Positions 13,598-28,587 of a DNA stretch of 30,196 bases are shown piece by piece. Numbering within the stretch: position 1 is the stretch's first letter; every line of letters begins with the position of its first letter. This stretch comes from a virus (Duplodnaviria > Caudoviricetes): positions 1 to 30,196 of the IMG/VR virus record IMGVR_UViG_3300027791_000088; one strand, written 5' to 3'. A program made the position numbers and the translations under genes. The notes beneath the pieces were generated by a model. The model ran no database searches, was not told the DNA's origin, and was given only the letters and a program-made list of their open reading frames with translations.

Positions 13598-14806
13598 ATG
13601 GCTATCAAGGAGAAGGAAATATATCTAAATAATTTTTTTGCGGTCGACTGTAGACCCGATCAAAGAGATTCGGAAATATCAGAATTTGAAAAAAAGTTGA
13701 TAAAATCATACATTGAAAATATATTTTCAATTACTGAAGAATTTGAAAATGAAATAGAATTGATAAGTTCAAACTTTTTTTATGAAAGCTATTCTTTATT
13801 AATCGAAGGTCAAAAATATTTATTAAAAATTAGTTTAGACCCAGATAACAGAAGCCTTTCTACTGAAAAGAAAGCCTTAGATTCTGTAAGTGATTTAATA
13901 TCTTCAAAAATAGTAAATTACGAAAATGACGAAGATTCTGGAATTGAATTCCTTCTCGTTAGCTGGGAAAATGGCGAAAACTTTGATTTTTTCGGCGTGG
14001 ATGAACTCGTATATAATTTAGGCACTCTTGTATGTAATTTAGATTTTATGCATGAATCAGACTCTTCTGATCTAATGTCTTTTGAAGATAAATTTCTTGA
14101 AAATGAATCAATTTTAGAGATTATGGAGTCTTCAGATGAAATAGAGAAATCTATTCTTGCAAAATTGGTAGATTTAAATGAAGATGACATCAAACATATT
14201 TTTTCAATACTTAAAAACATTTCAAAGGAAAGGTATTCAGAAGATATAACCGTACTATGCCACTCTAACCTAAAAAAAAGTAACATTTTGTACCAATCAG
14301 AGTACATAAAGTTTATTAATTTTGAACGTTCTCATAAAGCAGATATTTATTATAGTCTTATGAAAGTTATTAACAATCTGAGCCTGTTCAAATCAGCTAA
14401 AGATGTTAGTGCTTTTTTGAAAAAATACCATTCTGTTTCTAAATTAGTCAACCATCTTTCGCTTGAAGAATTTTTAACTAAGTATGAAGAAAAAAAAGAA
14501 ACAAACCGACTTTTGATTTTTCAAGATATATTACACAGAGTGCTTTTTCATTTTGGTGCTTATGGGGCTTTTCATAAAGTAGAAGATTTAGCAAGGTATA
14601 CTGATTTGTATAACAACCTTAGACCTACCGTTGAAAAGTATTTTCAAGACTACATTAAAGGTTTAGATAAATTGTTTTATACTTGCATTTCAAGTGTTCA
14701 AACTTACGACATTAATGAACTAAATAAAATAATGGGCGTTCCCGAAGAAGAGCATTCAGAAGAATACTCAAATCCAGCAATAGAAGAATATCAAGCAGAA
14801 GATTAA
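13598..14806 (+). CDS. APH/choline-kinase-fold protein, probably catalytically inactive
   Basis: KYLLKIS and TEKKAL (Lys/Glu pair), LVSWENG hinge, VLCHSNLKKSNIL in place of HGDL...NIL, and KFINFE in place of IDFE. Confidence 0.75.
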   Translation: MAIKEKEIYLNNFFAVDCRPDQRDSEISEFEKKLIKSYIENIFSITEEFENEIELISSNFFYESYSLLIEGQKYLLKISLDPDNRSLSTEKKALDSVSDLISSKIVNYENDEDSGIEFLLVSWENGENFDFFGVDELVYNLGTLVCNLDFMHESDSSDLMSFEDKFLENESILEIMESSDEIEKSILAKLVDLNEDDIKHIFSILKNISKERYSEDITVLCHSNLKKSNILYQSEYIKFINFERSHKADIYYSLMKVINNLSLFKSAKDVSAFLKKYHSVSKLVNHLSLEEFLTKYEEKKETNRLLIFQDILHRVLFHFGAYGAFHKVEDLARYTDLYNNLRPTVEKYFQDYIKGLDKLFYTCISSVQTYDINELNKIMGVPEEEHSEEYSNPAIEEYQAED

Positions 14807-14820
14807 GCTATATAAAATAA

Positions 14821-14848
14821 TAGAATATCACATTTATTATATTATAAT
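14821..14848 (+). promoter_or_regulatory. probable promoter with perfect TATAAT and weak -35 (TAGAAT)
   Basis: TATAAT at 14843-14848 in the intergenic gap, ATG at 14854 five nt downstream. Confidence 0.45.
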
Positions 14849-14853
14849 CTTGC

Positions 14854-15321
14854 ATGAGTCACAAACAACACGATATTTATAAGCCAAATTCTTTTAATTC
14901 TGGATGCGCATTTTCTTTTAAAATTGTTGAAAAAGATAAGGAGGGCAACAATCAAAAACCTTCGTTCTTGGTTCAGTCAATCAAGCAAGCCAGCTGGGAT
15001 AGCCAAAAAAAAACGGGGTCTTTCAGCGCAAACGCCAAAGACCCAGAGAAGAATATTTATTTTAAGTTAGGTGAAAATGAAATTGGCGGCATGCTTAATG
15101 CAATTGAAAATTATGTAGAGTTCTCAGCTTATCATAGCTATAATGAAGATAAAACTCAAATATCTTTTAAGCCCTACACAAAGAAAAACGGTCAAAAAGC
15201 TTTTTCTTTCAGTGTGGTAAAAAACTCTACTCTAAAATTTGGAATGGGGGTTGAGCTGTCAGAAGCCAGAACGCTCAAGGGGTTGTTTGATCTTTTTCTA
15301 TTTAAGTATTTTGATTACTAA
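14854..15321 (+). CDS. Whirly-like single-stranded nucleic-acid-binding protein
   Basis: Colinear resemblance to Whirly domains: DIYK, FKLGENEIG, EFSAYH, QISFKP, FSFSVVKN, VELSEARTL. Two beta-sheet plus helix repeats. Confidence 0.6.
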   Translation: MSHKQHDIYKPNSFNSGCAFSFKIVEKDKEGNNQKPSFLVQSIKQASWDSQKKTGSFSANAKDPEKNIYFKLGENEIGGMLNAIENYVEFSAYHSYNEDKTQISFKPYTKKNGQKAFSFSVVKNSTLKFGMGVELSEARTLKGLFDLFLFKYFDY

Positions 15322-17003
15322 TGAAAAAAATTCTTTTTCATTCTAATTCAGCTAAAGCTTTTACTGGTTTTGGCAAAAATGCAAAAAATATCTTGCGCTA
15401 TTTGCACAAGACAAACAAGTATGAAATTGTTGAATTTGCAAATGCTGTGCAATGGGGAGACCCATCTCTTTCATCGAGACCCTGGAAGGCACAAGGTTCT
15501 TTACCTAATAACCCTTCAGTAGTTCAAGAAATAAAGTCTGATCAAGTCAAGGCTAGGGCGGCATCATACGGAGGATTTACCATTGATCAAGCCATAAAAG
15601 AATATAAGCCAGATATTTATATAGGATGTGAAGACATTTGGGCTTTTTCAGATTATTGGAAAAAACCTTGGTGGGATAAAATCAATAATATGATTTGGAC
15701 TACCTTGGATAGCCAACCAATACTCCCTCAAGCCCTAGAAGCGGCACCAAAAACTAAAAATTTTTACGTCTGGGCGTCTTTTGCAGAAAAAGACATGAAA
15801 GAACTAGGCCATGATCATGTAAAGACTTTGCATGGAACGGTAAACACAGAAGACTTTTATAAAATTAGCGATCTTGATAAGCGAAAAACAAGAAGCAAGT
15901 TTAATCTTTCCGACGAATTCATTGTTGGCTTTGTATTTAGAAACCAACTAAGAAAAAGCGTGCCTAATTTACTTGAGGGGTTCAAAATATTTAAAAAAGA
16001 TTGCCCCAAAGCCAAACTATTATTACACACGCATTGGGGCGAAGGTTGGGATATACCGAGACTTTTAAAAGAAAAAGGCATAAACAACGATGATATTCTA
16101 ACTACTTATTTTTGCTCTTCTTGTAAAAATTATGCAATAGCTCCGTTCTGCGGGCAAGAACAAACCTGCCCATTTTGCGGAGCCGAAAAGACTTTCAATA
16201 CCACAAATACTAGGGCTGGAGTAGATGAATCTCAACTAAATGAAATCTATAACATTATGGATGTTTATTGTCATCCATTTACTAGTGGAGGCATGGAGAT
16301 ACCAATCTTTGAAGCAAAAATGACCGAGCTTGTAACTTTAGTCACGAATTACTCTTGTGGAGAAGATTCTTCTGGACCCGAATGTGGAAGTTTCTCTCTT
16401 GATTGGTCAGAATACAGGGAACCAGGAACTCAGTTTATTAAAGCTTCAACATATCCATCTAGCATAGCAAAACAACTTAAAAAAGTTTACAATCTAAAAC
16501 CGCACAAAAAACTCGAAATGGGTAAAAAAGCAAGAGATTGGACTATTGAAAATTATTCCACAGACTCTATTGGAAAAAAATTAGAAAAAATTATAGATGA
16601 AATGCCCCCTGTAGAATACGACTTTGATTGGGATAAGGATCAAAAAGGCATAGATTTAGAAGATTTATTAGATGAAGGTAAGCGAATTGCTATTGTTGTT
16701 CCTGAATCAGCTGTAGATTTATTAGCAGTCAACTCTTTGATTGATAGCCTGCAAGACCTCTATGAAGATCACGATATTTATATTTTCACGATGCCCACCT
16801 TTTTTCCTTATATAGAAGATAATCCTAAGGTCCACAAGGTCTTACCATATTCCAATACAATAGATAATTCTCGCTTTTTAGAAGGTGTCGGAGAACACAA
16901 AGGATTTTTTGAATTAGCCTTTTTCCCCTCTTATGGCACTCAAAAATTTTCTAATTATCATCATAACGGAATAGATAAAACACATTATAAATTATATGAG
17001 TAG
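15321..17003 (+). CDS. GT4-like (GT-B) glycosyltransferase with a zinc-ribbon insert and a C-terminal GT9-like N-domain
   Basis: TGFG, RNQLRK and DVYCHPFTSGGMEIPIFEA; insert CSSC...CPFC; tail KRIAIVVPESAVDLL...IEDNPKVHKV. Confidence 0.8.
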   Translation: MKKILFHSNSAKAFTGFGKNAKNILRYLHKTNKYEIVEFANAVQWGDPSLSSRPWKAQGSLPNNPSVVQEIKSDQVKARAASYGGFTIDQAIKEYKPDIYIGCEDIWAFSDYWKKPWWDKINNMIWTTLDSQPILPQALEAAPKTKNFYVWASFAEKDMKELGHDHVKTLHGTVNTEDFYKISDLDKRKTRSKFNLSDEFIVGFVFRNQLRKSVPNLLEGFKIFKKDCPKAKLLLHTHWGEGWDIPRLLKEKGINNDDILTTYFCSSCKNYAIAPFCGQEQTCPFCGAEKTFNTTNTRAGVDESQLNEIYNIMDVYCHPFTSGGMEIPIFEAKMTELVTLVTNYSCGEDSSGPECGSFSLDWSEYREPGTQFIKASTYPSSIAKQLKKVYNLKPHKKLEMGKKARDWTIENYSTDSIGKKLEKIIDEMPPVEYDFDWDKDQKGIDLEDLLDEGKRIAIVVPESAVDLLAVNSLIDSLQDLYEDHDIYIFTMPTFFPYIEDNPKVHKVLPYSNTIDNSRFLEGVGEHKGFFELAFFPSYGTQKFSNYHHNGIDKTHYKLYE

Positions 17004-18090
17004 TATATCAGAAGTTTATGCTAAAGACCTTGGCGTTAAAATAGGAAAGGCGAAAATTACGGAACATTTCCATCCCATACCAGAAGGAAAATATATAACA
17101 TTCTTCAAGCAAGATATTATTCAAGCCAATCAATACGACTATTGGGAAACTGTTATATCTCTGCTGAACCCAATTTTTAAAAAGCATAAAATAATTGGGA
17201 TCGAATTGTATGATAATAAAATTCAAAGCGCTAAGCAAAATAATTTTTTAATCAAAAACTCGGAGTTATATCTAGGAATTGCAAATCATTTTATGATGAC
17301 TGCAGATATTTATAATAAACCATCTGTTTGTCTTTTATCGAACGTATATCCTAGCAATATAAATTCTGAATATTCTAAAGTTATTACCCCAGATTTTTCC
17401 TCAATCAAGCCGTCGTTTTCCTCGCAAGAGGCTAAAAAGAGAATTAATGAAATATTGCCAGAATATATTGCCCAATCTGTTTTAGATAAATTAAATATAA
17501 AAGAAAAAATAAAATTTAAAACGATAAGAATTGGCTCTTCTTACAACCAAGATCTCGTCGAAATTGTTCCTAACTTTTTTTCTGATCATGCAGATTTAGT
17601 AAATAAAAATATAAACATCAAATCAAACATTCATTTCAACAAAGAGAATATTATAAATTGGTGCAGACATTCAAATGTAAACCTTTTTTTAGATCAGGTT
17701 ATAGATGATGGAATGATTGACGCTTGTACAAACTTAAAGCAGGTAGTGTTTAATTATGACGCCAAACATAAAGACTTAGATCTCTCAAATTTTATTAAAA
17801 AATTAAAAAATAACAGAATCAATCTTGTTATTCACGTTCAAGATGAAAAAATATTTTCCGATACCAGTCTTAAATATTTTGATAACAATGTTATTAGAAA
17901 AAACAATATAGAACCAGAAAATGTTTCAAATGTGGAATGTAAATTCCTTTCTAAAAAGAAATTTGTTTCAGGGGGAAATGTATTTAATTCAGAATTTTCT
18001 TCTAAAACGCTTGACAATTCTAACAAATTCATCTACAATGAAGACTCAAAATTAGAAATAGAAAGTTTATACCTATATGTCGAAGAATAA
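16996..18090 (+). CDS. protein with a degenerate GT9-like C-domain plus an unknown C-terminal region
   Basis: KYITF...YDYWETVISLL...FLIKNSELYLGI....TADIYNKPSVCLLS resembles the heptosyltransferase C-domain. Confidence 0.55.
   Translation: MSSISEVYAKDLGVKIGKAKITEHFHPIPEGKYITFFKQDIIQANQYDYWETVISLLNPIFKKHKIIGIELYDNKIQSAKQNNFLIKNSELYLGIANHFMMTADIYNKPSVCLLSNVYPSNINSEYSKVITPDFSSIKPSFSSQEAKKRINEILPEYIAQSVLDKLNIKEKIKFKTIRIGSSYNQDLVEIVPNFFSDHADLVNKNINIKSNIHFNKENIINWCRHSNVNLFLDQVIDDGMIDACTNLKQVVFNYDAKHKDLDLSNFIKKLKNNRINLVIHVQDEKIFSDTSLKYFDNNVIRKNNIEPENVSNVECKFLSKKKFVSGGNVFNSEFSSKTLDNSNKFIYNEDSKLEIESLYLYVEE
18011..18039 (+). promoter_or_regulatory. sigma70-like promoter TTGACA-17nt-TACAAT
   Basis: Near-consensus, within the upstream gene's 3' end, ahead of ATG 18077. 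Confidence 0.6.
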
Positions 18091-18817
18091 ATTATATGGC
18101 CCAGATTTGTGGAAACGCAACGAACACGGACTTTTAGAGTCCGTTGATTATGAATTTAACAAAGATGGCTCAGTCAACTGGCGAGCTATGATTAGCCCAG
18201 AGCACTTGTATCCAAACAAGGATCATTTTGAAATGCGCAAGATGCCAGTTCCAGATTCCATTGAAGGGCTAGAAGACCACCAACTTTTGATTAAGCTCGG
18301 CGGCATTAAGGAGTTGGCGAAGCTTCGTGGATTTCATAATATCACTTATGATATCACAGAGTCTTCAGACAGCCGTGTTGTAGTTCAATGCATGATCGGC
18401 TGGATTAGTAACTACGAAAGCAATGGCGCTCAGTCTTTTGCGTCTATGGCAAATGCTACAACCCACAACACAAACGGATTTGCCGCTAAGTTTCTAGAAT
18501 GCATTGCAGAAAATCGTGCTTTTGTTCGTGCTGTACGCAATTTTTTAGGCATTCACATTGTTGGGGCTGACGAGATTGACTCTTCAAAGAACAAGTCTCC
18601 TATCGTATCCCCTCCTTCATCTGCTGGAGCGAAGGATATTAGCCCACAGGGTATTCTAAAGGAAAAAGCGGGGGTGAGCTTCGATTCTTTCAAGAACAAG
18701 CTTAGAGAGCTCTACAAGGAGCAACTTTATACGAATGATCCAGAAGTTATTAAAGAGTGGTCAAACTATAAAGACATTCCCGCTAAAGAGTGTCGCAAGC
18801 TATTAAAGCTCTTATGA
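18077..18817 (+). CDS. putative single-strand annealing protein (Rad52/Sak/RecT-like fold)
   Basis: LIKLGGIKELA, three beta-strand-like segments, then IAENRAFVRAVRNFLGI..VGADEI (A..RA..RA.R..LGI....E), a Pro/Ser linker and a small C-terminal domain. Confidence 0.55.
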   Translation: MSKNKLYGPDLWKRNEHGLLESVDYEFNKDGSVNWRAMISPEHLYPNKDHFEMRKMPVPDSIEGLEDHQLLIKLGGIKELAKLRGFHNITYDITESSDSRVVVQCMIGWISNYESNGAQSFASMANATTHNTNGFAAKFLECIAENRAFVRAVRNFLGIHIVGADEIDSSKNKSPIVSPPSSAGAKDISPQGILKEKAGVSFDSFKNKLRELYKEQLYTNDPEVIKEWSNYKDIPAKECRKLLKLL

Positions 18818-19260
18818 TTTTTGAAATAAAAACAGATTCTGAGTTGTTGGAATTGAGAGATGTTCTAGTAAATTTTTATAAAATATTACCATATGAAAAA
18901 GATTTGGAAGATGCTAAAAAAAAATGGCTCCTAATTTGGAAAGAATTAATCAAATCTAAAAAAGGTAAAATTTTTGCTTTAGAAAAAGAAAGAAAAATTA
19001 TAGGAGCTTTAGGTTTTTTGATAACTCCAGCCCTAGAAGATGGTGTTCTTACCGCTACAGAAGCTTTTTGGTATGTAGACGAAAAGCACAGGGGTTCTGG
19101 GTTAAGGCTTCTTAATAAATACGAGTCTTACGCAAAATCTAAAGGATGCAAAAGAATAGGTATGGTTCATTTAGAGAACTCAATGCCTGATAAGTTAAAG
19201 AAATTATATGTTCGAAAAAAATACAAACACGTTGAAAGTATGTATTTAAAAGAATTATAA
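18814..19260 (+). CDS. GNAT-family acetyltransferase
   Basis: FWYVDEKHRGSGLRLL acetyl-CoA motif, AKSKGC and KLYVRKKY. ATGA overlap supports start at 18814. Confidence 0.85.
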   Translation: MIFEIKTDSELLELRDVLVNFYKILPYEKDLEDAKKKWLLIWKELIKSKKGKIFALEKERKIIGALGFLITPALEDGVLTATEAFWYVDEKHRGSGLRLLNKYESYAKSKGCKRIGMVHLENSMPDKLKKLYVRKKYKHVESMYLKEL

Positions 19261-20157
19261 TTAGCTTATTAGATAATTCGTTCTGACTGTACCAGCCCCA
19301 TTTGTCTGAGATTCAATGGTGAATTCTTGATCTAAACTATTCGCTGCAATTGTTATAGAACCATCATCAGCTATTGGGAGATCAACAGGCTCAGCGGTTG
19401 TGAAAACGGCCCCGCCACTTGGAATAAGTTTTACTTCAGAATCTGTTCTTATTATAAAATCTGCATAAAAATCTAACGGTACTGTATTGTCAACTACTAT
19501 ATCAACACCAACAAAGACCTCTGTTACGAGATCCGATTGACCTACCACCAAGTCGTTTGCAGTTGATCTTGATATTAAAAATGGATTGGGATCAGAACTG
19601 GAAATTGTTGGGGACGAACTTAAACCATTAGACATCGACCCACCTACAGAAGCGCTCGCTTCTCCAAAGGTTAAGTAATCAGTGGGTATTACTTTGTAAA
19701 ATATAGTTTCATTGACACGCCCAGTTATATCATCGCTAGTAACGTTAATCTGGAAAGACTCTTCTCCCGCAGTTAACTGAAGAGGAAATGAAGTTACTCT
19801 ATTGCTATGATCTATTATATCCGTAGAAAAATTTTTATCAAATCCAGAGTAGACATCTGCTCGTTTTATATTTTTAATAGCAAGGCCGTCGTCGATTGTA
19901 TTTAAATCTCCAGAAAAGTAAGCCTTTAAATTTATATTTTTTTCTAGAATTATTACGTCCGTCATAGAGTCAGCAGGTTCAGTCAAAAGATTCGCTCCTT
20001 CAAATTCTAGCCCAGTTATGGCAAATTTAGGGAACTCTACTTTAAAACTTCCAGAACCACTAGGAAATTGCGTATCCTCGCTGCCTCTAACAAAGCACTC
20101 TACTCTATATCCATCCCCTGCTGGATGTCCGCCTATAACTACTTCATTAAATATCAT
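19261..20157 (-). CDS. hypothetical virion/tail-associated protein
   Basis: Acidic, beta-strand-like protein; ATGA-coupled to the end of J. Confidence 0.65.
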   Translation of the reverse strand: MIFNEVVIGGHPAGDGYRVECFVRGSEDTQFPSGSGSFKVEFPKFAITGLEFEGANLLTEPADSMTDVIILEKNINLKAYFSGDLNTIDDGLAIKNIKRADVYSGFDKNFSTDIIDHSNRVTSFPLQLTAGEESFQINVTSDDITGRVNETIFYKVIPTDYLTFGEASASVGGSMSNGLSSSPTISSSDPNPFLISRSTANDLVVGQSDLVTEVFVGVDIVVDNTVPLDFYADFIIRTDSEVKLIPSGGAVFTTAEPVDLPIADDGSITIAANSLDQEFTIESQTNGAGTVRTNYLIS

Positions 20158-23100
20158 AATATTCCTGTTACTCCTATTTGTAAGAACTGAAAATTAGAAG
20201 TTAGATTTCTGTTTATTATTGCTTCAGACCTTTCTACATCTCCAGTTAAAGTCACGGTGCACGGGACCCGCTGCCCTCCAACGAAGGAAATATCTACAAT
20301 ACCCGTGCTATCTACATCTAATATAAATTTTGTTTTGATTTCGTTATCAAATTCACTTTGAAAATTATCTGGACTCGTGTAATTCAAGTCGGATGCATCT
20401 GCACCAGTTGTTAATCCAATATAATTTATTATATGGCCACTCGTTAAAGCCTCTCCAGTTAATTCTGAATTGCCCAGCACCTTAAAGCCTGTGTTTGAAT
20501 CAAAAGTCTGAAGAAGAAAATCGCTAAATGTAGGGGGGTTGCTTCCAGCATGGGGTCCAGACAGAAGTGATGTAAATAGGGCAATTGGGTTGGTGCTATC
20601 TGTTATTGTATTATTTAATATTGTTTCTCCTCCAGTCCAAGCAGCTACATCCCATGGGTAATTTTCATTTTCGCCCCCTGACCAAGCAATTCTATTATGA
20701 CTAACAAATGAATCAAAATCGGGGTCAGTACTGTCTGTCACTATTCCGTTCGATATTGAAGCTCCGCCACTCCACAAAGCCACATCCCATGGGTAAATTA
20801 CATTTGATCCTCCAGACCATGCGATGTTACCAGCGGAAAGAATTTGATCAAAAGACGGAGCGCTGCTATTTGTCACTGTTTGGGGCTTTGCGCTCCAAGA
20901 TGACACATTAAATGGATATTGACGACCTTGATCGACAGAGATCCAAGCAATTCTGTCATGGGAAAGTTTCGATGAGAACACTGGGGAAGAACTATTTTCT
21001 ACGTGATCGGGCCCTTCTGACCAAGCATTAGCAGCAATATTTCCTGGAAAGTTTACATTTGCTCCGCCTGACCAAGCAATTCTATTATAAGATGGACTAG
21101 CTGGATCATCATCTGTTAAGATCCAAGTGTTGCTTGCTCCACTAGTTCTAATTCTTAGTCCAGAGGTTGTCGTATTTACAAATAAATCTGCACCCCCAGT
21201 ATATGTTCCATTGAAGGCGTTTGGATTGTCCGTCATCCCAGTTCCTACCGCACTTAGGAAAAATCCAGTATAATAAGTATTAGTTAAATCTTCATCAATA
21301 AGAATCCAACTCCCTCCAGATTTTTTAACTTTTAATCCAGGCTTTTGTGTATTCACAAACAAATCATTGCTCCCAGTATATGATCCATCGAAGCTATTTG
21401 GATTATTTATCATACCAGTGCCAACTGAAGATATCCTGAATCCAGTGGTAGCCGCTTGATCAGTTTTAAATATCCAAGTATCATCGGCTCCACTCTTTTC
21501 GATTTTTAATGTAGGTGTCGATTCATTCTCATATGAATCATTACTAATTCTAATATATGTTCCGTCGAAGCTATCTGAATTACCTACTATCCCAGTTCCA
21601 ATTCCATCTACATCAAATCCAGTAATATAGATATTAGCTGGGTCATCATCACAAAACACCCAAGTATTATTAGCCCCAGTTTGTTTGAGCCTCAATCCAG
21701 ATGTTGCTGTATTTTGATATAAATCAGCGCTCCCAGTGTATTCTGCATCGAAGCTATTTGGATTAAAGCTCATGCCACTTCCAATTCCTGGGTTCATAGT
21801 CAATCCAGTAAAAAAAGCTCCTCCAGACCATTCAGTTTCTGTAGCATCATATGGCGTGACAATACTAGGATGAGCTAGGTCTTCTCCTCCCGACCAAGCT
21901 ATCGGGAGATTGGTATAATCAATAGCTGGATCTTCATCAACAAGAATCCAAGTATCATTAGCTCCACTTGTCCTTACCCTTAAACCACTTGATACGGTAT
22001 TTTGATATAAATCCCCATCTCCAGTATATGTTCCATCAAAGTCTCTTGTATTTTGTGGCATCCCACTTCCAACCCCTTGTATCGTGAATCCAGTAGAATG
22101 TTGGATTATGTCCTGATTAATTGTAGTTTTTGATCCATCGAGAGCCTCTCCGTCCAAAAGCCCTTTTGAAAAACCCGTTCGAGTCACTTCAACTTGTAAA
22201 TGATGCAAGTTGCCATCATTCAATGAAGCCCCCGCATCGCCTGTAATAGCCACATGATCTACTCCATTTAAATTAATATAATTTTTACCATCTCCAGATT
22301 GAAACCACCCTATTCCAGTACCATCATTATGAGACTCCAGTAAATATTGTTTTCCGTCAAGACTTGCATCGAATTTTACCCAAGCTGCCATTGTAAAATC
22401 AGAAGTCTCTACATTTAAATCACTTCCACTTATATAAATATGATTATTTGCGCCATCAGTTTCGTTTGATCTTATACCTCTATCGAGGCCGCTTGTTAAC
22501 ATTTGTTGAAAAAGTGTATTTTTATCACCAGTTTCATTTACTACAAAATAGCTATCTTCTAGATTACTGTTTTCTCCAGATCTTTGACATAAAACTGCAT
22601 ACTGGTCATGTGTAAAAATATTATTTGTTGTCGAAGTGTCTGAACTATTGAATTGATTTAAAATTGAGTCCGACTTAAAAGAGAAATTTTGATTTCCAGT
22701 AGATGCATAATTTAGCACTTGTACTGGTAAATCGCTTGTTAGAGTATTGTTAAACGCTGATTCGTCTACGGCCAAATATGCATATTTACCAGTTGATCCT
22801 GCTGCAATATTATTTTCCTGAAAAGATGCGAAGTAAAATCCAGTATTAGATAATCCAGTTATACAAGTTTGAGAAGTATCATAAGGCGATGCTTGAATAT
22901 GCGGTTGTTGCAATTGTATAACAAGACTAGGCACTGAAGTAAATGGCTTAGAAAACTCAACAGCTTGATAGCCTGTATTATTATTTTTACTTACAAAATC
23001 AACTTCTATATTTTTCCCATCAATATTGTATCTTCCAGTTTGAGAAGCTACATATGCATAATCGCCGCTAGTAACACCCTCGTCATACCTAAGTGTTTTG

Positions 23101-26100
23101 TGTCTAAGTGCAAAACTAGTAGCAGTTGTAGAAGCCCTTCCTTCTTTACGATAAACATCCTTAAACGACTTACTGCATTTTTGTTGAACAAATACAGCAG
23201 GCACCTCTGAAAATGTTGCCGAAAAGGTCTTACTAAGCGTAGATGTGTATTCCTCTGCCGAACGTTGAAAACTACCTACTTCAAAATTTACACTTGCAGG
23301 TATTCTATATCTACCATCTCCAGTGTACCCAAACATCTCATCAATTTCTGAATTCAGTATCTCAAAAGAATTTTCGTTCGTTAGTGTTTTATATTCGATG
23401 GCAGATTGGTTGTTGTTACCAATGCCTGATTTTAAATTACCTTGAAGGTCGTAAATATTTATAATTTGGTCGATTACGTCAGATTGAACGCTACCTCCAA
23501 CTCTTCCAAATATATCTTCAAATTCTAAATTTATGATTGTATTTAAGGCTGGATTATTTTCGAAAAAAGAATTTTGACCGACTCCAGTTTCGTCCGCATT
23601 GTCAAATGTAGAATCAAAATCTGTTTCTATAAAAATATTTGAATACTCAGTGAAAGCCTCCTGATTATTTTGAAATCCAAAAGTGCTTAGCGTAGTTGTA
23701 ACTTGAGCAAGCGTTGAGGTGTTTGATCTTGCTACGGTTGGCGTTGTATTTTCTGAGAATACACTTACATTATAAGTTCCTATTTGATCTATTTTAGAGT
23801 CTCCGCTCAATGTAACAACTGTGGTGAGATCGTTACTCTTGAAAATAGTAGTAATAATAGTATTTGAGTTAGGTTCTTCTAAAATAATTATATATTTTTC
23901 TGGTGCCTTTGTGCTAACTAATGGATCGGTTATTGTTAGGTTTAAATTTTTAGTTCTACCTTCACCCGCAGTTAATGAATTTATTGTAACATTTGATGGC
24001 GGATCAGGTCTAACAACATCTGTTATAGCAAGATTAGGCTGAAATACATCTTGTCCTATATCAAAAGATATATTTTCTTCTACAAGTTTAAACTTACCCG
24101 TATGATGTATTGTGGCCGATACATTAAATCCTAGATTTTTATCTTCTGATATATTTAATACTCTATAATACTTTGGATCTCTTCCGCTTGCATCAATGTT
24201 ATAGATTGACCCATGTTTTATATTTGCATCTTTTTCCGAGAACCATTGGCTACTTGAGCCATTACTATCTGCTCCAGTTATGAATATAGCGACACCACTA
24301 TCTATAATTTCATAACTTGAATTTAAACCACCTATAGAAGGAGTTATTTTTAAAGACATTATTTGCGGATTATGTATTTCTTTATACAACTCATTGTTTG
24401 ATCCTGGGGCATTATAAAAATCCTTAATTCCAGATTTTCCTACTGGGTTATATATATGTATGTTTCCTCCAGTTACATAATCGGTTAAATCACTGCCTAT
24501 TGCTGGCTCGACTATTATGGCCGATGGCCCCACGCCTAAATTAGACGTAGATGAATCTGGATCCGTGTAATTAGTTTGCCCGCTTACTCCCAAAACTGTC
24601 CCGTAGTTTCGAGTAAAATTTTTCATCTCATCTTCAACCCTTATTATGTCTCCTGGCTGTACCAAAAGACTCTCTAATCCAGCATTGAAAGATATTGTTT
24701 CTGTGGTGTATTGAGATTCAAACAAAACGTATTTTGCTAGTCTATGGGCTTGAGCTTTTGAGGTGCATCCAATCCCTTCTATTTGTTTGAAATTTAACCC
24801 CGCATACTTTATAGCTTCAGGGTCTTCAACATATTCCGTCTGTGATGTAAAATTATTTCTTTTATCCAAAAAAGAAACTTCCACGGCAGATAGCTTTGTC
24901 GATCTATCTACATCCGCATACGAAAACATTCCATCTTTAACATTTAAATTATTAAAAATCAAATGAGGGGGAAATTTATTTCTGGCAGACGCTCCGTTAG
25001 AAGGGTCATTAACATCTTCAAAAAAGTATGGCCTATCGACTTTAACAGAAACGCAAGAATTATCAAAATACGTCATTGCTCTAAACGACCTTGCTAGATT
25101 TTGTATGGCGTCAAAAGCATTAGTCTGATCTTTCATTAATATATTGCAACTAAATCTAGGCTCAAGACCGCCAAATCCATCATCTAATCCAATAAATCTG
25201 CCAGCACCTACACTATTGGTAGTACTGCTTCCATCGTGCATTGTTACTGCATCGCAATACATACCTATTTCATATAGGGTCCATTTATCTATAATATCTA
25301 TATCTCGTAAATAAGTCCCTAAACCGTATCTCTTATTAGTTAAAAGGTCATAATATATCCAAGCTGGATTATCGGACCAAGCATATTTAAAAGTTCCATC
25401 CCATTGGCCATTATTAGCATAGATCACGTTGTGCCTTGTAGTACCGTCTGAAGAAAATCTTTTATCTGTTCCGTCAGCATTTGTTGGATTATAATTAGAG
25501 GGTATTTTTATTTTTTTGCCTTTAAGTCTAAATGTTCTTGCTGGAACTTGTGGGTGGTATTGAGAATCTATGATACTCGCTATATAACAACTTCCAGGAT
25601 AGTGATAGGTGTCGTTATATTTTTCTGTTATCGTGCCTACGCCCGCGTTGCGGCCAACTAAATTAGACATTGTTTCAAATTGGTCCTTATGCACCTCTAT
25701 AAAATTATATAAATCGGTATCAGACAATACAGGTAAAACAATATTCTCTAAGGTGAATGTGTATGGGGCCGTAATAACGCCGCGTACCGCTACCTTCCCA
25801 TTCGAATCTCCAACTGATTTCCCTTTTCCTGGCCTGACTGTAAAGCTAGGGGTAGACTCTTGTCTATTACCGTCTTTAGTGTATTTCCCGACTTTAACTG
25901 TAAAAGATACCGTAAGTGGCAAAGGTTGTCCCATTTTACTTTTACCAGCTTCATTTTCGCTTTTAGTAGAATATGATTTCGTGTCTTTTAGCGAGTCTAT
26001 TTGCAGGCCTAAATCCACCAAATCTATATCTTTATCATAATTTGTATATATATATTCTTTGGCGGCCGATTCTATCGGCACATAATTTTGCCAAGTGACA

Positions 26101-26624
26101 AAGTCTCTATTGCCTCCGCCCTCGTCTCTTACATCCCTACTCCCACTTCCTGTCTTTGCGCCATTTGCCGCCCCACCCATGCTATACGGCCCTTTAATTT
26201 TATAAGATATTTTTGTTAACTTACTCGGTTTTTTTGAAATACTACATGCGGTCTGTAAAATACTTCCTGATTTAAATTCAATATTATATTTAGAATGGCT
26301 TGAGTTGTTTTGAGGGTCTCTTAGCGCCGTATCATTAAAATAAATTCCTTGATCAATAGGTAAAGCACCTGCAGATGCCGAGTTCCCAACGGTAAGATGC
26401 TCATTATTAAATTCTTTCAAAGCTCGTGTGCCAATTAAAGTTTTGCCCTCTTGACTAACCAAACCTTCGACCTCGCCTTCACATATTAAATCTACTGCTT
26501 CATACAGCTGATGACCTTGCTTGACATTAGCCCCATCTGGTGGCATCAAGTAAGAGGGTTGGGCTCCTTTACTCCTACCAGCTATAACTATCTTTTTCTT
26601 GAATATATTTTTGTAAAAACCCAT
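20154..26624 (-). CDS. tail tip / host-specificity protein J-like, with FN3-like, H-type-lectin-like, LamG-like and repeat domains
   Basis: DLICEGEVEGL, KIPSNY, WDGTFK.AWSDNPAW..YDLLTNKRYGLG, IDKWTLYEIG.YCD, EPRFSCN, GCTSKAQAHR and PGDIIRV. Confidence 0.93.
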   Translation of the reverse strand: MGFYKNIFKKKIVIAGRSKGAQPSYLMPPDGANVKQGHQLYEAVDLICEGEVEGLVSQEGKTLIGTRALKEFNNEHLTVGNSASAGALPIDQGIYFNDTALRDPQNNSSHSKYNIEFKSGSILQTACSISKKPSKLTKISYKIKGPYSMGGAANGAKTGSGSRDVRDEGGGNRDFVTWQNYVPIESAAKEYIYTNYDKDIDLVDLGLQIDSLKDTKSYSTKSENEAGKSKMGQPLPLTVSFTVKVGKYTKDGNRQESTPSFTVRPGKGKSVGDSNGKVAVRGVITAPYTFTLENIVLPVLSDTDLYNFIEVHKDQFETMSNLVGRNAGVGTITEKYNDTYHYPGSCYIASIIDSQYHPQVPARTFRLKGKKIKIPSNYNPTNADGTDKRFSSDGTTRHNVIYANNGQWDGTFKYAWSDNPAWIYYDLLTNKRYGLGTYLRDIDIIDKWTLYEIGMYCDAVTMHDGSSTTNSVGAGRFIGLDDGFGGLEPRFSCNILMKDQTNAFDAIQNLARSFRAMTYFDNSCVSVKVDRPYFFEDVNDPSNGASARNKFPPHLIFNNLNVKDGMFSYADVDRSTKLSAVEVSFLDKRNNFTSQTEYVEDPEAIKYAGLNFKQIEGIGCTSKAQAHRLAKYVLFESQYTTETISFNAGLESLLVQPGDIIRVEDEMKNFTRNYGTVLGVSGQTNYTDPDSSTSNLGVGPSAIIVEPAIGSDLTDYVTGGNIHIYNPVGKSGIKDFYNAPGSNNELYKEIHNPQIMSLKITPSIGGLNSSYEIIDSGVAIFITGADSNGSSSQWFSEKDANIKHGSIYNIDASGRDPKYYRVLNISEDKNLGFNVSATIHHTGKFKLVEENISFDIGQDVFQPNLAITDVVRPDPPSNVTINSLTAGEGRTKNLNLTITDPLVSTKAPEKYIIILEEPNSNTIITTIFKSNDLTTVVTLSGDSKIDQIGTYNVSVFSENTTPTVARSNTSTLAQVTTTLSTFGFQNNQEAFTEYSNIFIETDFDSTFDNADETGVGQNSFFENNPALNTIINLEFEDIFGRVGGSVQSDVIDQIINIYDLQGNLKSGIGNNNQSAIEYKTLTNENSFEILNSEIDEMFGYTGDGRYRIPASVNFEVGSFQRSAEEYTSTLSKTFSATFSEVPAVFVQQKCSKSFKDVYRKEGRASTTATSFALRHKTLRYDEGVTSGDYAYVASQTGRYNIDGKNIEVDFVSKNNNTGYQAVEFSKPFTSVPSLVIQLQQPHIQASPYDTSQTCITGLSNTGFYFASFQENNIAAGSTGKYAYLAVDESAFNNTLTSDLPVQVLNYASTGNQNFSFKSDSILNQFNSSDTSTTNNIFTHDQYAVLCQRSGENSNLEDSYFVVNETGDKNTLFQQMLTSGLDRGIRSNETDGANNHIYISGSDLNVETSDFTMAAWVKFDASLDGKQYLLESHNDGTGIGWFQSGDGKNYINLNGVDHVAITGDAGASLNDGNLHHLQVEVTRTGFSKGLLDGEALDGSKTTINQDIIQHSTGFTIQGVGSGMPQNTRDFDGTYTGDGDLYQNTVSSGLRVRTSGANDTWILVDEDPAIDYTNLPIAWSGGEDLAHPSIVTPYDATETEWSGGAFFTGLTMNPGIGSGMSFNPNSFDAEYTGSADLYQNTATSGLRLKQTGANNTWVFCDDDPANIYITGFDVDGIGTGIVGNSDSFDGTYIRISNDSYENESTPTLKIEKSGADDTWIFKTDQAATTGFRISSVGTGMINNPNSFDGSYTGSNDLFVNTQKPGLKVKKSGGSWILIDEDLTNTYYTGFFLSAVGTGMTDNPNAFNGTYTGGADLFVNTTTSGLRIRTSGASNTWILTDDDPASPSYNRIAWSGGANVNFPGNIAANAWSEGPDHVENSSSPVFSSKLSHDRIAWISVDQGRQYPFNVSSWSAKPQTVTNSSAPSFDQILSAGNIAWSGGSNVIYPWDVALWSGGASISNGIVTDSTDPDFDSFVSHNRIAWSGGENENYPWDVAAWTGGETILNNTITDSTNPIALFTSLLSGPHAGSNPPTFSDFLLQTFDSNTGFKVLGNSELTGEALTSGHIINYIGLTTGADASDLNYTSPDNFQSEFDNEIKTKFILDVDSTGIVDISFVGGQRVPCTVTLTGDVERSEAIINRNLTSNFQFLQIGVTGIL
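20510..22097 (-). repeat. five-copy protein-level repeat in J arranged A1 B1 A2 A3 A4 A5 BC BC BC BC C
   Basis: A = TG(F/L)...G.G...N...F.G.Y.....W....D (x5); B = IAW.....P....W (x5); C = S..P.F (x5). A 22 nt exact repeat cctgaccaagcaattctattat lies at 20677-20698 and 21067-21088. Confidence 0.9.
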
Positions 26625-27208
26625 TATCCTAAATCAGCACTAGTAACATTTGTTGAAATAATATTCGAGCCAACGCGAAGTTCTCCGTACAATAATGGTA
26701 TCGGAAAACCCTGAACCGCGTTATTTTGTAAATTAGTAAAAATATAGCTAGACATATCAATTTTACTTTCTGCCGTCTGAGGTTTTGGGGTCTCAACTGG
26801 GAATAATAACGACATGATGCCTTGAACTAATAGTCCAATCGCCAAATTAGCCAAAAATCCGCCAGCTCCAATAGCTGCACCTAGGGCGGCTACGGCTCCA
26901 GCGGCAAATCCTACAATCGCTGCGATCGCACTAAAAATGAACGCACCAGTTATGGCTGGGACAATATGTATTTCTTCAGGGACGCTTGCTGCTGCTAATT
27001 CATCAACCGTTTTCCATTCTTTGTTTGGGTTTTTGGGATCTATAAAAGCGTAACTTAATCCCTCTTTGAATTTAGAAAGCAAAAAATTTCTAACTCCTGG
27101 ATTATTAGCTTCCAAGGCGTTAGTGATATCTAAAAGCTTATTTACTTTAAATTTATGGTTTGTTCCATAAATTTCTCCAAATTCTCCGTGTATAATTACA
27201 TTAACCAT
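26624..27208 (-). CDS. tail assembly protein I-like (ubiquitin-like N-domain)
   Basis: V.IHGEFG..YG, EIHIVPAITG, Ala/Gly-rich hydrophobic segment and QGFPIPLLYGELRVGS. Confidence 0.9.
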   Translation of the reverse strand: MVNVIIHGEFGEIYGTNHKFKVNKLLDITNALEANNPGVRNFLLSKFKEGLSYAFIDPKNPNKEWKTVDELAAASVPEEIHIVPAITGAFIFSAIAAIVGFAAGAVAALGAAIGAGGFLANLAIGLLVQGIMSLLFPVETPKPQTAESKIDMSSYIFTNLQNNAVQGFPIPLLYGELRVGSNIISTNVTSADLG

Positions 27209-27593
27209 CCAAAAACTCCTTTAACATTATTACACCTTTTTCTGATCTTTGGAAATTAGGCATATCAAATAAATGAAACCTCTCTGTAACCAAAGAGTAT
27301 ATCAAGAACGGATAAAGACAGTTTTTTGAATTTTCTATATCGTATTCAGATGGTTCCTCCCTGCCGTTTACGTGTGTGTGAAATATAGCTAATAATTCAC
27401 CACTTAATTTTACTTGCAAAAAATCCGCTGGATTAATCAAAAATATATCATCATCATTTGAATGATTTTTGGCGGCCTTAAAAATTAATTTACCGTCTTT
27501 ATATAGAACAAAACCACAAACTTCTTTTCCTAAGTCCGTGTTCGCGTATTCGATTAAATCCTTCTTAAAACTATCCTTTAGGTTGGTATGCAT
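27201..27593 (-). CDS. tail assembly protein K-like, JAB/MPN metalloprotease domain only
   Basis: EVCGFV and FHTH......PSEYD JAMM motif; no NlpC/P60 domain. Start may be 27593 or 27614. Confidence 0.85.
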   Translation of the reverse strand: MHTNLKDSFKKDLIEYANTDLGKEVCGFVLYKDGKLIFKAAKNHSNDDDIFLINPADFLQVKLSGELLAIFHTHVNGREEPSEYDIENSKNCLYPFLIYSLVTERFHLFDMPNFQRSEKGVIMLKEFLDG

Positions 27594-28587
27594 GAGTCCC
27601 TGGGAATCCCCCAAATCTTAGTCCAGTTTTTCCAAATCTTAGTTTGCAGGCTGATATTTTTTTTGAACAGTCGTCCCTTTCCCATTTGCTGGATATTGGC
27701 GGGAACTCCTCATTTCCATTCGCGCTAGATGCGACACAGACATAAAAAGTTCGTAAGGGTTTTACTGAAGCCCCATTTATAGAGCTTTCTGAATCATCAT
27801 CAGAAATATCATGATTAGCGACCTCTATATATACATGGTCTCCTTTGCTGTATGTAATTTGAGGGCCCCATTTACCTTTATATTTTGTTGCGGTGATGGC
27901 TACGACATTGCCACTAGAATCTTTAAAATCATTATCATTTAAGGTCTTTACAGGTTGACCAGCATAAAGACATCCACAGCCCCTGTATACCCATGTGCAG
28001 TATTTAGAGTAAACGTTTCTGTTTGGTAAATAAGAATTATCTAATTCGAAAACAGTAGATAGTTCTAGTTCTACCAGGTTTTTTGTTTCCGATGTTCTTC
28101 TATTTATGTAATAGGTTTGATCTGGTAAATACGAACTTGCAGAAGCCTCGCTATTCTGAGTAACTATATCGAAATACGGATTTTTTCCTCCTGGAAAATT
28201 AATATCATCTAAAAACCTAGCGAAAGTTCTTTTTCTTATTACTTTACAACCAATTAAATTGTTATGTACTTTTAGATATTTTGATATGACATAGTCTATG
28301 TTTGCCACTTTTATCCTTGGCCTGGCAAGGCTGTTGTCACCCTTCACTTCAAAACCGCTAACTTCCATGGGATAAGATATGTATTCTTGGCCTTGCCACA
28401 TGATTCTGTCTACTGTCAGCGTAGTGTTGCCATCTCCGCGTTGCACACCAGCGGTACTGGGGCATAAAGCTAATACACTACTTGCATCATCTGGCCAAGC
28501 AAAATATATTAAAAAAAATTCCAATAGTTGGCTCGGCTCAAGAGACATTGCCTCAGATGCTACTTTTTGATTTATTCCTTCTGCCAT
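27571..28587 (-). CDS. minor tail protein L-like
   Basis: WQGQEY..YP....GFE, RKRTFARFLD..NF, CTWVYRG.GC...DDCSK..SACKLRF and FGGFPG. Confidence 0.93.
   Translation of the reverse strand: MAEGINQKVASEAMSLEPSQLLEFFLIYFAWPDDASSVLALCPSTAGVQRGDGNTTLTVDRIMWQGQEYISYPMEVSGFEVKGDNSLARPRIKVANIDYVISKYLKVHNNLIGCKVIRKRTFARFLDDINFPGGKNPYFDIVTQNSEASASSYLPDQTYYINRRTSETKNLVELELSTVFELDNSYLPNRNVYSKYCTWVYRGCGCLYAGQPVKTLNDNDFKDSSGNVVAITATKYKGKWGPQITYSKGDHVYIEVANHDISDDDSESSINGASVKPLRTFYVCVASSANGNEEFPPISSKWERDDCSKKISACKLRFGKTGLRFGGFPGTHAYQPKG

Follow-up and report, generated by a model that had tools for sequence, protein, structure and literature searches.

Nested copies of one module, probably an out-and-back arm, within the LamG domain of a marine phage tail-tip protein

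The principle of recursive, or nested, insertion of protein domains is already known, from Si3 and from tail sheaths. In Si3 of the cyanobacterial RNA polymerase beta' subunit, as described in PMC10895346, the modules SBHM-2 to -5 are built from distant regions of the chain, and the body is elongated, at 150 A. The phage tail-tip protein analysed here resembles Si3, as that source presents it, in that homologous copies of one module are inserted in a loop of a host domain and do not form a simple tandem array. It differs in that both the host and the module are other ones (the tip unit, searched by sequence, lacks a match in Pfam or PDB), and in that close relatives here differ in copy number, from 0 to 5, with splits at three sites of the module. 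In the sheath proteins of the T4 gp18 type and of the diffocin (CD1363), domains I-IV are inserted in one another like Russian dolls, domains III and IV being less conserved (PMC6088184). The tip protein is likewise a phage tail protein of domain-in-domain build, the depth of which varies between relatives (two to four domains in sheaths); unlike the sheaths as that source describes them, it has one module inside its own copies, and it belongs to a non-contractile tail tip.

Lambda gpJ, which is trimeric (PMC10721106), shares with the present locus the L-K-I-J gene order and homologous hub domains (PDB 8iyk_J), but H-lectin-like repeats, a LamG domain and the nest appear to replace the central fibre and the receptor-binding domain of lambda. 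Periscope proteins (SasG, Rib, SHIRT) are described in PMC8201768 as carrying tandem, highly similar domains, with the ligand-binding domain at the far end. As in these proteins, the number of modules differs between relatives (0-5 in the tip protein); in contrast to the periscope proteins of that account, the tip copies are nested and 41-58% alike, and the lectin-type domain lies, by sequence order, at the base. In the passages of PMC4432964 consulted, nested domains figure only as a filter category, and our literature searches, whose scope took in little of the subscription literature, gave no described self-nested phage tail domain among the matches listed. What is new here is an unnamed module, its three split sites, a complete series from 0 to 5 copies, and possible intermediates.

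The reading that we favour, with a probability of about 0.8, is that five modules of about 105 residues are nested in the LamG domain, each outer copy likely folding from an outgoing and a returning piece, and that together they likely form an out-and-back arm adding putative reach or binding surface. The customary picture of repeat proteins is one of beads on a string; this family provides a natural series of 0-5 self-nested copies, split at three different loops. Its near-identical sister alleles and orphan-half variants make it possible to test how recursive nesting originated, how folding proceeds without mispairing and whether depth alters host attachment. The family also offers a scaffold for designed out-and-back arms.

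The tail-tip gene and the insert in its LamG domain

The window, i.e. the whole stretch of 30,196 nucleotides that was analysed (IMG/VR record IMGVR_UViG_3300027791_000088), was found in 20 runs from 12 studies, all of them marine or seawater metagenomes; three rows carry a flag as possible source. Its tail-tip genes, and the gene that follows them, are:

20154..26624, minus strand: lambda-gpJ-like tail-tip protein, 2156 aa (PF13550; phrog_31, E 4e-109), with a hub at about aa 331-900
26624..28587, minus strand: upstream lambda-like tip genes L (27571-28587), K/JAB (27201-27614) and I (26624-27208)
19261..20157, minus strand: 298-aa gene downstream of the tip gene (33% identity, E 9e-32, to aa 1849-2152 of P0033)

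The hub of the tip protein matches phrog_31 over aa 331-900 and lambda gpJ (8iyk_J) over aa 333-693 (E 2e-40). Past the hub, 8iyk_J and the tip protein showed no sequence match; our structural model began at aa 1391. In the distant relative P0033, the homologue of the 298-aa gene is fused onto the end of a J-like protein, which indicates that the protein is split in the clade of the window. DnaE, DnaB, primase, RecA and ClpA-like genes are present elsewhere in the window, which marks the phage as a large one whose tail tip is of the lambda type. On the plus strand (1208-2251 and 13598-19260) lie GDP-mannose dehydratase, glycosyltransferase, phosphotransferase-like and acetyltransferase genes, which suggest that the phage modifies glycans or DNA. 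Within the tip gene, two H-type-lectin-like repeats precede the LamG domain (about 22750-23260, minus strand, aa 1127-1290); they align with one another (hhalign, 92%) and match PF09458 weakly. The idea that LamG itself lies within a third H-lectin-like domain found no support (hhalign probability 0.3%).

The nest and LamG occupy the last third of the 2156-aa tip ORF. In reading order, their parts are:

22095..22454, minus strand: N-terminal half of a LamG/pentraxin-like domain, aa 1391-1510
21909..22094, minus strand: A1, outermost level, aa 1511-1572
21810..21908, minus strand: B1, aa 1573-1605; the insertion point of levels 2-5 (site III) lies between B1 and C1
21624..21809, minus strand: A2, probable partner B2C2
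21447..21623, minus strand: A3, the most divergent copy, probable partner B3C3
21270..21446, minus strand: A4, probable partner B4C4
20964..21269, minus strand: A5B5C5, the innermost, unbroken unit, aa 1786-1887
20838..20963, minus strand: B4C4
20703..20837, minus strand: B3C3
20565..20702, minus strand: B2C2
20517..20564, minus strand: C1, which closes level 1 as a lone piece, gained or lost with A1B1 (89+16 and 88+20 aa)
20157..20516, minus strand: C-terminal half of LamG and end of the protein, aa 2037-2156

A preliminary description, made from the sequence of the window, had proposed a three-part repeat with five copies of each part in a bracket-like order. The motifs are indeed there, A and the IAW of B within about 6 nt of where that description had put them and the lone C within about 13 nt. 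A motif scan placed the starts of A at aa 1511, 1606, 1668, 1727 and 1786 (nt 22094, 21809, 21623, 21446 and 21269), IAW at nt 21902, 21080, 20951, 20825 and 20690, and the C motifs at nt 20993, 20867, 20732, 20597 and 20543. A further match of the C pattern, at aa 1619, lies inside A2 and is no true C. The order between the LamG halves is therefore A1 B1 A2 A3 A4 A5 BC BC BC BC C1; of the 756,756 orderings of five A, five B and five C, 273 are valid nestings. Linkers between consecutive pieces are a few residues only.

The A copies are 41-58% identical to each other at the amino acid level (shuffle z 13-21) and 59-68% at the nucleotide level, A3 being the most divergent (41-47%). The four BC copies are 34-59% identical (z 6.5-14.5), B1 is more weakly similar to them (z 1.7-4.8), and A and BC are unrelated (z about 0). 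The middle copies have retained W, D, G and P at the core positions. The same order was observed in a relative that is 99% identical (L022) and in one that is 74% identical and also has five levels (L001), and in run X15, which carries no source flag, the whole stretch is present, gap-free, in one contig; an assembly artefact is thus ruled out as the source of the five-level order.

The block had also been proposed to interrupt a LamG domain, and relatives with and without an insert confirm it. In the empty allele L038, PF13385 matches across the insertion site (30.5 bits, cut-off 27.6), whereas in L034, which carries an insert, the match extends only to profile position 101. The tip protein of the window, in which LamG is interrupted, gave no PF13385 match in the Pfam profile search. 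Pfam names nothing here, and profile searches miss split domains.

If the copies are nested, the chain would run out via A1B1, A2, A3 and A4 as far as the fifth, unbroken unit, and would come back via B4C4, B3C3, B2C2 and C1 into LamG. The preliminary description had envisaged a telescoping stalk that would diversify a receptor-binding protein. By sequence order LamG would stand at the base of such an arm, so that a change in depth would not push LamG outward; the tip of the nest is another copy of the same module. Should the protein be trimeric like lambda gpJ, three arms per tip would be expected. Our best guess for the putative role of the arm, which we consider an even bet, is that it supplies reach or extra binding faces for host attachment.

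Copy number and matched indels among relatives

Relatives were collected as 67 protein rows, including the window; five rows without the second LamG half were dropped, and the rest gave 39 distinct LamG interiors. On a profile built from 15 unbroken units, the breaks recur at three places, close to profile positions 13, 60 and 85. Depth in the 39 interiors is 0 (L038), 1 (14 rows), 2, 3, 4 (L027) or 5, and 15 interiors have a depth of 0 or 1. The distance between the two LamG halves equals 90 + 105 x depth (r 0.999, for 17 rows that we chose and depths from our own parse), one nesting level being about 105 aa.

By the motif parser, 35 of the 39 interiors are balanced, last-in-first-out nests; the number rises to 37 with P0014 and P0015, whose parser failures were pattern errors corrected by eye, and the count is not blind because the C-motif pattern was tuned by eye on the same sequences. 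A permutation test on 10 architectures gave p 5e-5, a value that overstates the case for balance because the relatives are not independent. The expectation of the preliminary description that A and BC counts change together thus held for most interiors, but not as an absolute rule: P0008 has an extra BC of 47 aa and P0016 an extra first strand of 20 aa. Both are nearly identical to balanced siblings (P0008 to P0047, 97%; P0016 to L033, 100%), and their extra halves are either orphan intermediates, which would mean that halves can change alone, or assembly slips. An ABC unit stands alone in 14 of the 39 interiors, and P0032, another fibre protein, has one as well. Further relatives stood at 2/2 (P0045, and the distant P0033, whose nest has its split at the first of the three sites), 3/3 (P0046) and 1/1 (P0053), and P0054 carries one garbled single. 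In the distant clade, four of six loci are empty alleles.

The strongest evidence for nesting comes from matched indels. Eleven pairs of close relatives, which we chose, were compared. First, in three pairs the difference is a single complete unit (L034/L038, 105 aa; L007/P0053, 105 aa; P0007/L025, 106 aa). Second, in six pairs there are two indels, apart from each other, which together make whole units (89+16, 88+20, 20+86, 59+41, 59+44 and 118+85 aa); the cut shifts from pair to pair, and the module is thus split at three different loops. The remaining two are the unbalanced pairs, P0008/P0047 and P0016/L033.

These indels bear on the proposal that A and BC are two small domains arrayed in tandem independently of one another, and that the 5/5/5 count arose by chance. 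Any nest can formally be written as tandem N-parts followed by tandem C-parts, and P0008 and P0016 do alter one run alone. However, wherever the cut is made, at any of three different places, the two pieces always make up one unit; a piece of 16-20 aa is too short to be a domain, and balance is found in 20 of the 24 multi-copy interiors by the parser (22 with P0014 and P0015). The proposal of independent arrays is already largely refuted, and we regard it as very improbable.

Sister alleles also indicate which halves belong together. The outer A and the outer BC of L007 are contiguous in P0053, where the inner unit is absent, and similarly the outer A and outer BC of P0007/L004 are contiguous in L025. 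An A4-type core was gained with a B4-type half (L027 compared with L026), and the A3 core was gained with B3 (window compared with L027). This co-gain argues for a nested, last-in-first-out register; under in-order pairing, A3 would go with B4 and A4 with B3. The depth series, the matched indels and the register all agree with the nesting of copies put forward in the preliminary description. From these sequence comparisons, nested folding of the split levels is strongly inferred, and A2-B2C2, A3-B3C3, A4-B4C4 and A1B1-C1 are the pairings that we infer within one chain.

Predicted structure and pairing of the halves

AlphaFold2 was run on aa 1391-2156 with 24 sequences (mean pLDDT 56, pTM 0.41). 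Confidence was highest in the outer and inner parts (pLDDT mostly 55-77 in the LamG halves, 63-87 in A1B1, 66-81 in A5B5 and 76 at the C1 end) and lowest in the middle levels (23-32 from B4 to C3, 30-56 in B2C2). The alignment used by AlphaFold set the halves of relatives out of nested register, which may be why confidence in the middle levels is low. A two-level piece, A4-B4C4, gave a pLDDT of 33 (10 sequences). The pentraxin 4pbp_A aligned to the model over 182 of 206 residues (rmsd 2.7, Z 15.8) in the model range 1-756; as the N-terminal half has only 120 residues, LamG is predicted to close around the insert from both halves. One part of the expected structure, the re-closed LamG, was thus recovered, whereas the A4-B4, A3-B3 and A2-B2 contacts were not seen in these low-confidence models, and for the middle levels it is the sequence that argues, strongly, for nested folding.

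The middle levels could instead be loose or degenerate, with only the outer and inner levels folding and A3, A4, B4C4 and B3C3 being tolerated with no adaptive role. Model confidence is low exactly at these levels, which include the most divergent A copy; orphan halves are tolerated in 2 of the 39 interiors, and empty and single alleles are common. On the other hand, all five levels persist in L001, which is 74% identical, the middle copies conserve the core W, D, G and P, and balance across depths points to selection for completed units. We therefore consider degenerate middle levels unlikely.

About as unlikely, or very slightly less so, is a pairing of halves between the chains of a gpJ trimer (domain swapping), or in another register, which would produce an interwoven three-chain stalk. 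Lambda gpJ is a trimer in the account cited above, such a stalk would also require balanced counts, and the middle pairings are resolved in neither model. Nevertheless, the same A and BC are contiguous in single and un-nested alleles, the co-gain of halves tracks the last-in-first-out register, consecutive pieces are joined by linkers of a few residues, and LamG closes within one chain in the model. These observations favour nested folding within one chain.

In the model, the unit resembles a small beta meander, and a Foldseek search with the 766-aa model returned only low-TM jelly-roll matches. The unit matched nothing in Pfam (0 of 15 members), in PDB sequences or among isolated phages, and its hits in the protein atlas were all under 0.9. 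Against 1.84 billion representatives there were 16 hits, the last 9 of which we regard as unrelated repeats, since they add up weak stretches, none above 9 bits, most of which fall on one short part.

Mobility, recombination and age

Close to the first LamG strand, and preceding the nest, a stand-alone unit is inserted in L005, L006, P0004-P0006, P0008 and P0010. P0032, an unrelated fibre protein that has beta-roll repeats (PF21300), carries a single unit at aa 1152-1269. Copies ahead of the LamG core and in P0032 suggest that the module is mobile.

Depth likely changes by recombination among co-occurring relatives, as judged from sequence comparisons. The DNA of L004 and L025 is 94-100% identical to about aa 1500 and then mostly 70-86% identical (93-96% in two late windows), and architecture does not follow the tree of the hub (33 of 39 rows; the six without a full hub were left out). 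In three of four runs (X8, X10 and X11), diverged contigs that skip a 177-nt piece of the A3 core occur beside the five-level type of the window. Depth could change by one of two routes: the innermost loop would gain or lose a complete unit, or two matched half-changes would take place, possibly via an orphan-half stage. Depth is unchanged in L022 and in near-identical contigs of X10, X11 and X15. The copies are old, as judged from the nucleotide identity among A copies, and the five-level form is stable across samples, which argues for change at the level of lineages and not for a fast switch.

A broader and more tentative scenario, which we think possible though doubtful, is that of an adhesion domain that is mobile, hosts copies of itself and has three loops permissive to insertion, in which co-infecting marine phages would gain or shed entire levels by offset recombination and thereby tune the putative reach and valence of the tail tip and the host range. 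If true, it would be a recursive counterpart to tandem-repeat length variation, intermediates included.

Other sequences were also observed at these positions. A different domain of 117 aa lies inside B1 of P0015 (L010:7694-8044), and also of P0013 and P0049, making a fourth insertion point in the module. That it might be a distant copy of the unit found no support for P0013/P0015 (no profile link, probability 0.9%), and its hits in the protein atlas were all under 0.9. Within the last 500 aa of their tip genes, the distant relatives L058, L059 and L060 carry other, unrelated inserts in the same LamG; in L060, two copies of one such insert are apparently present in two loops, as judged by eye.
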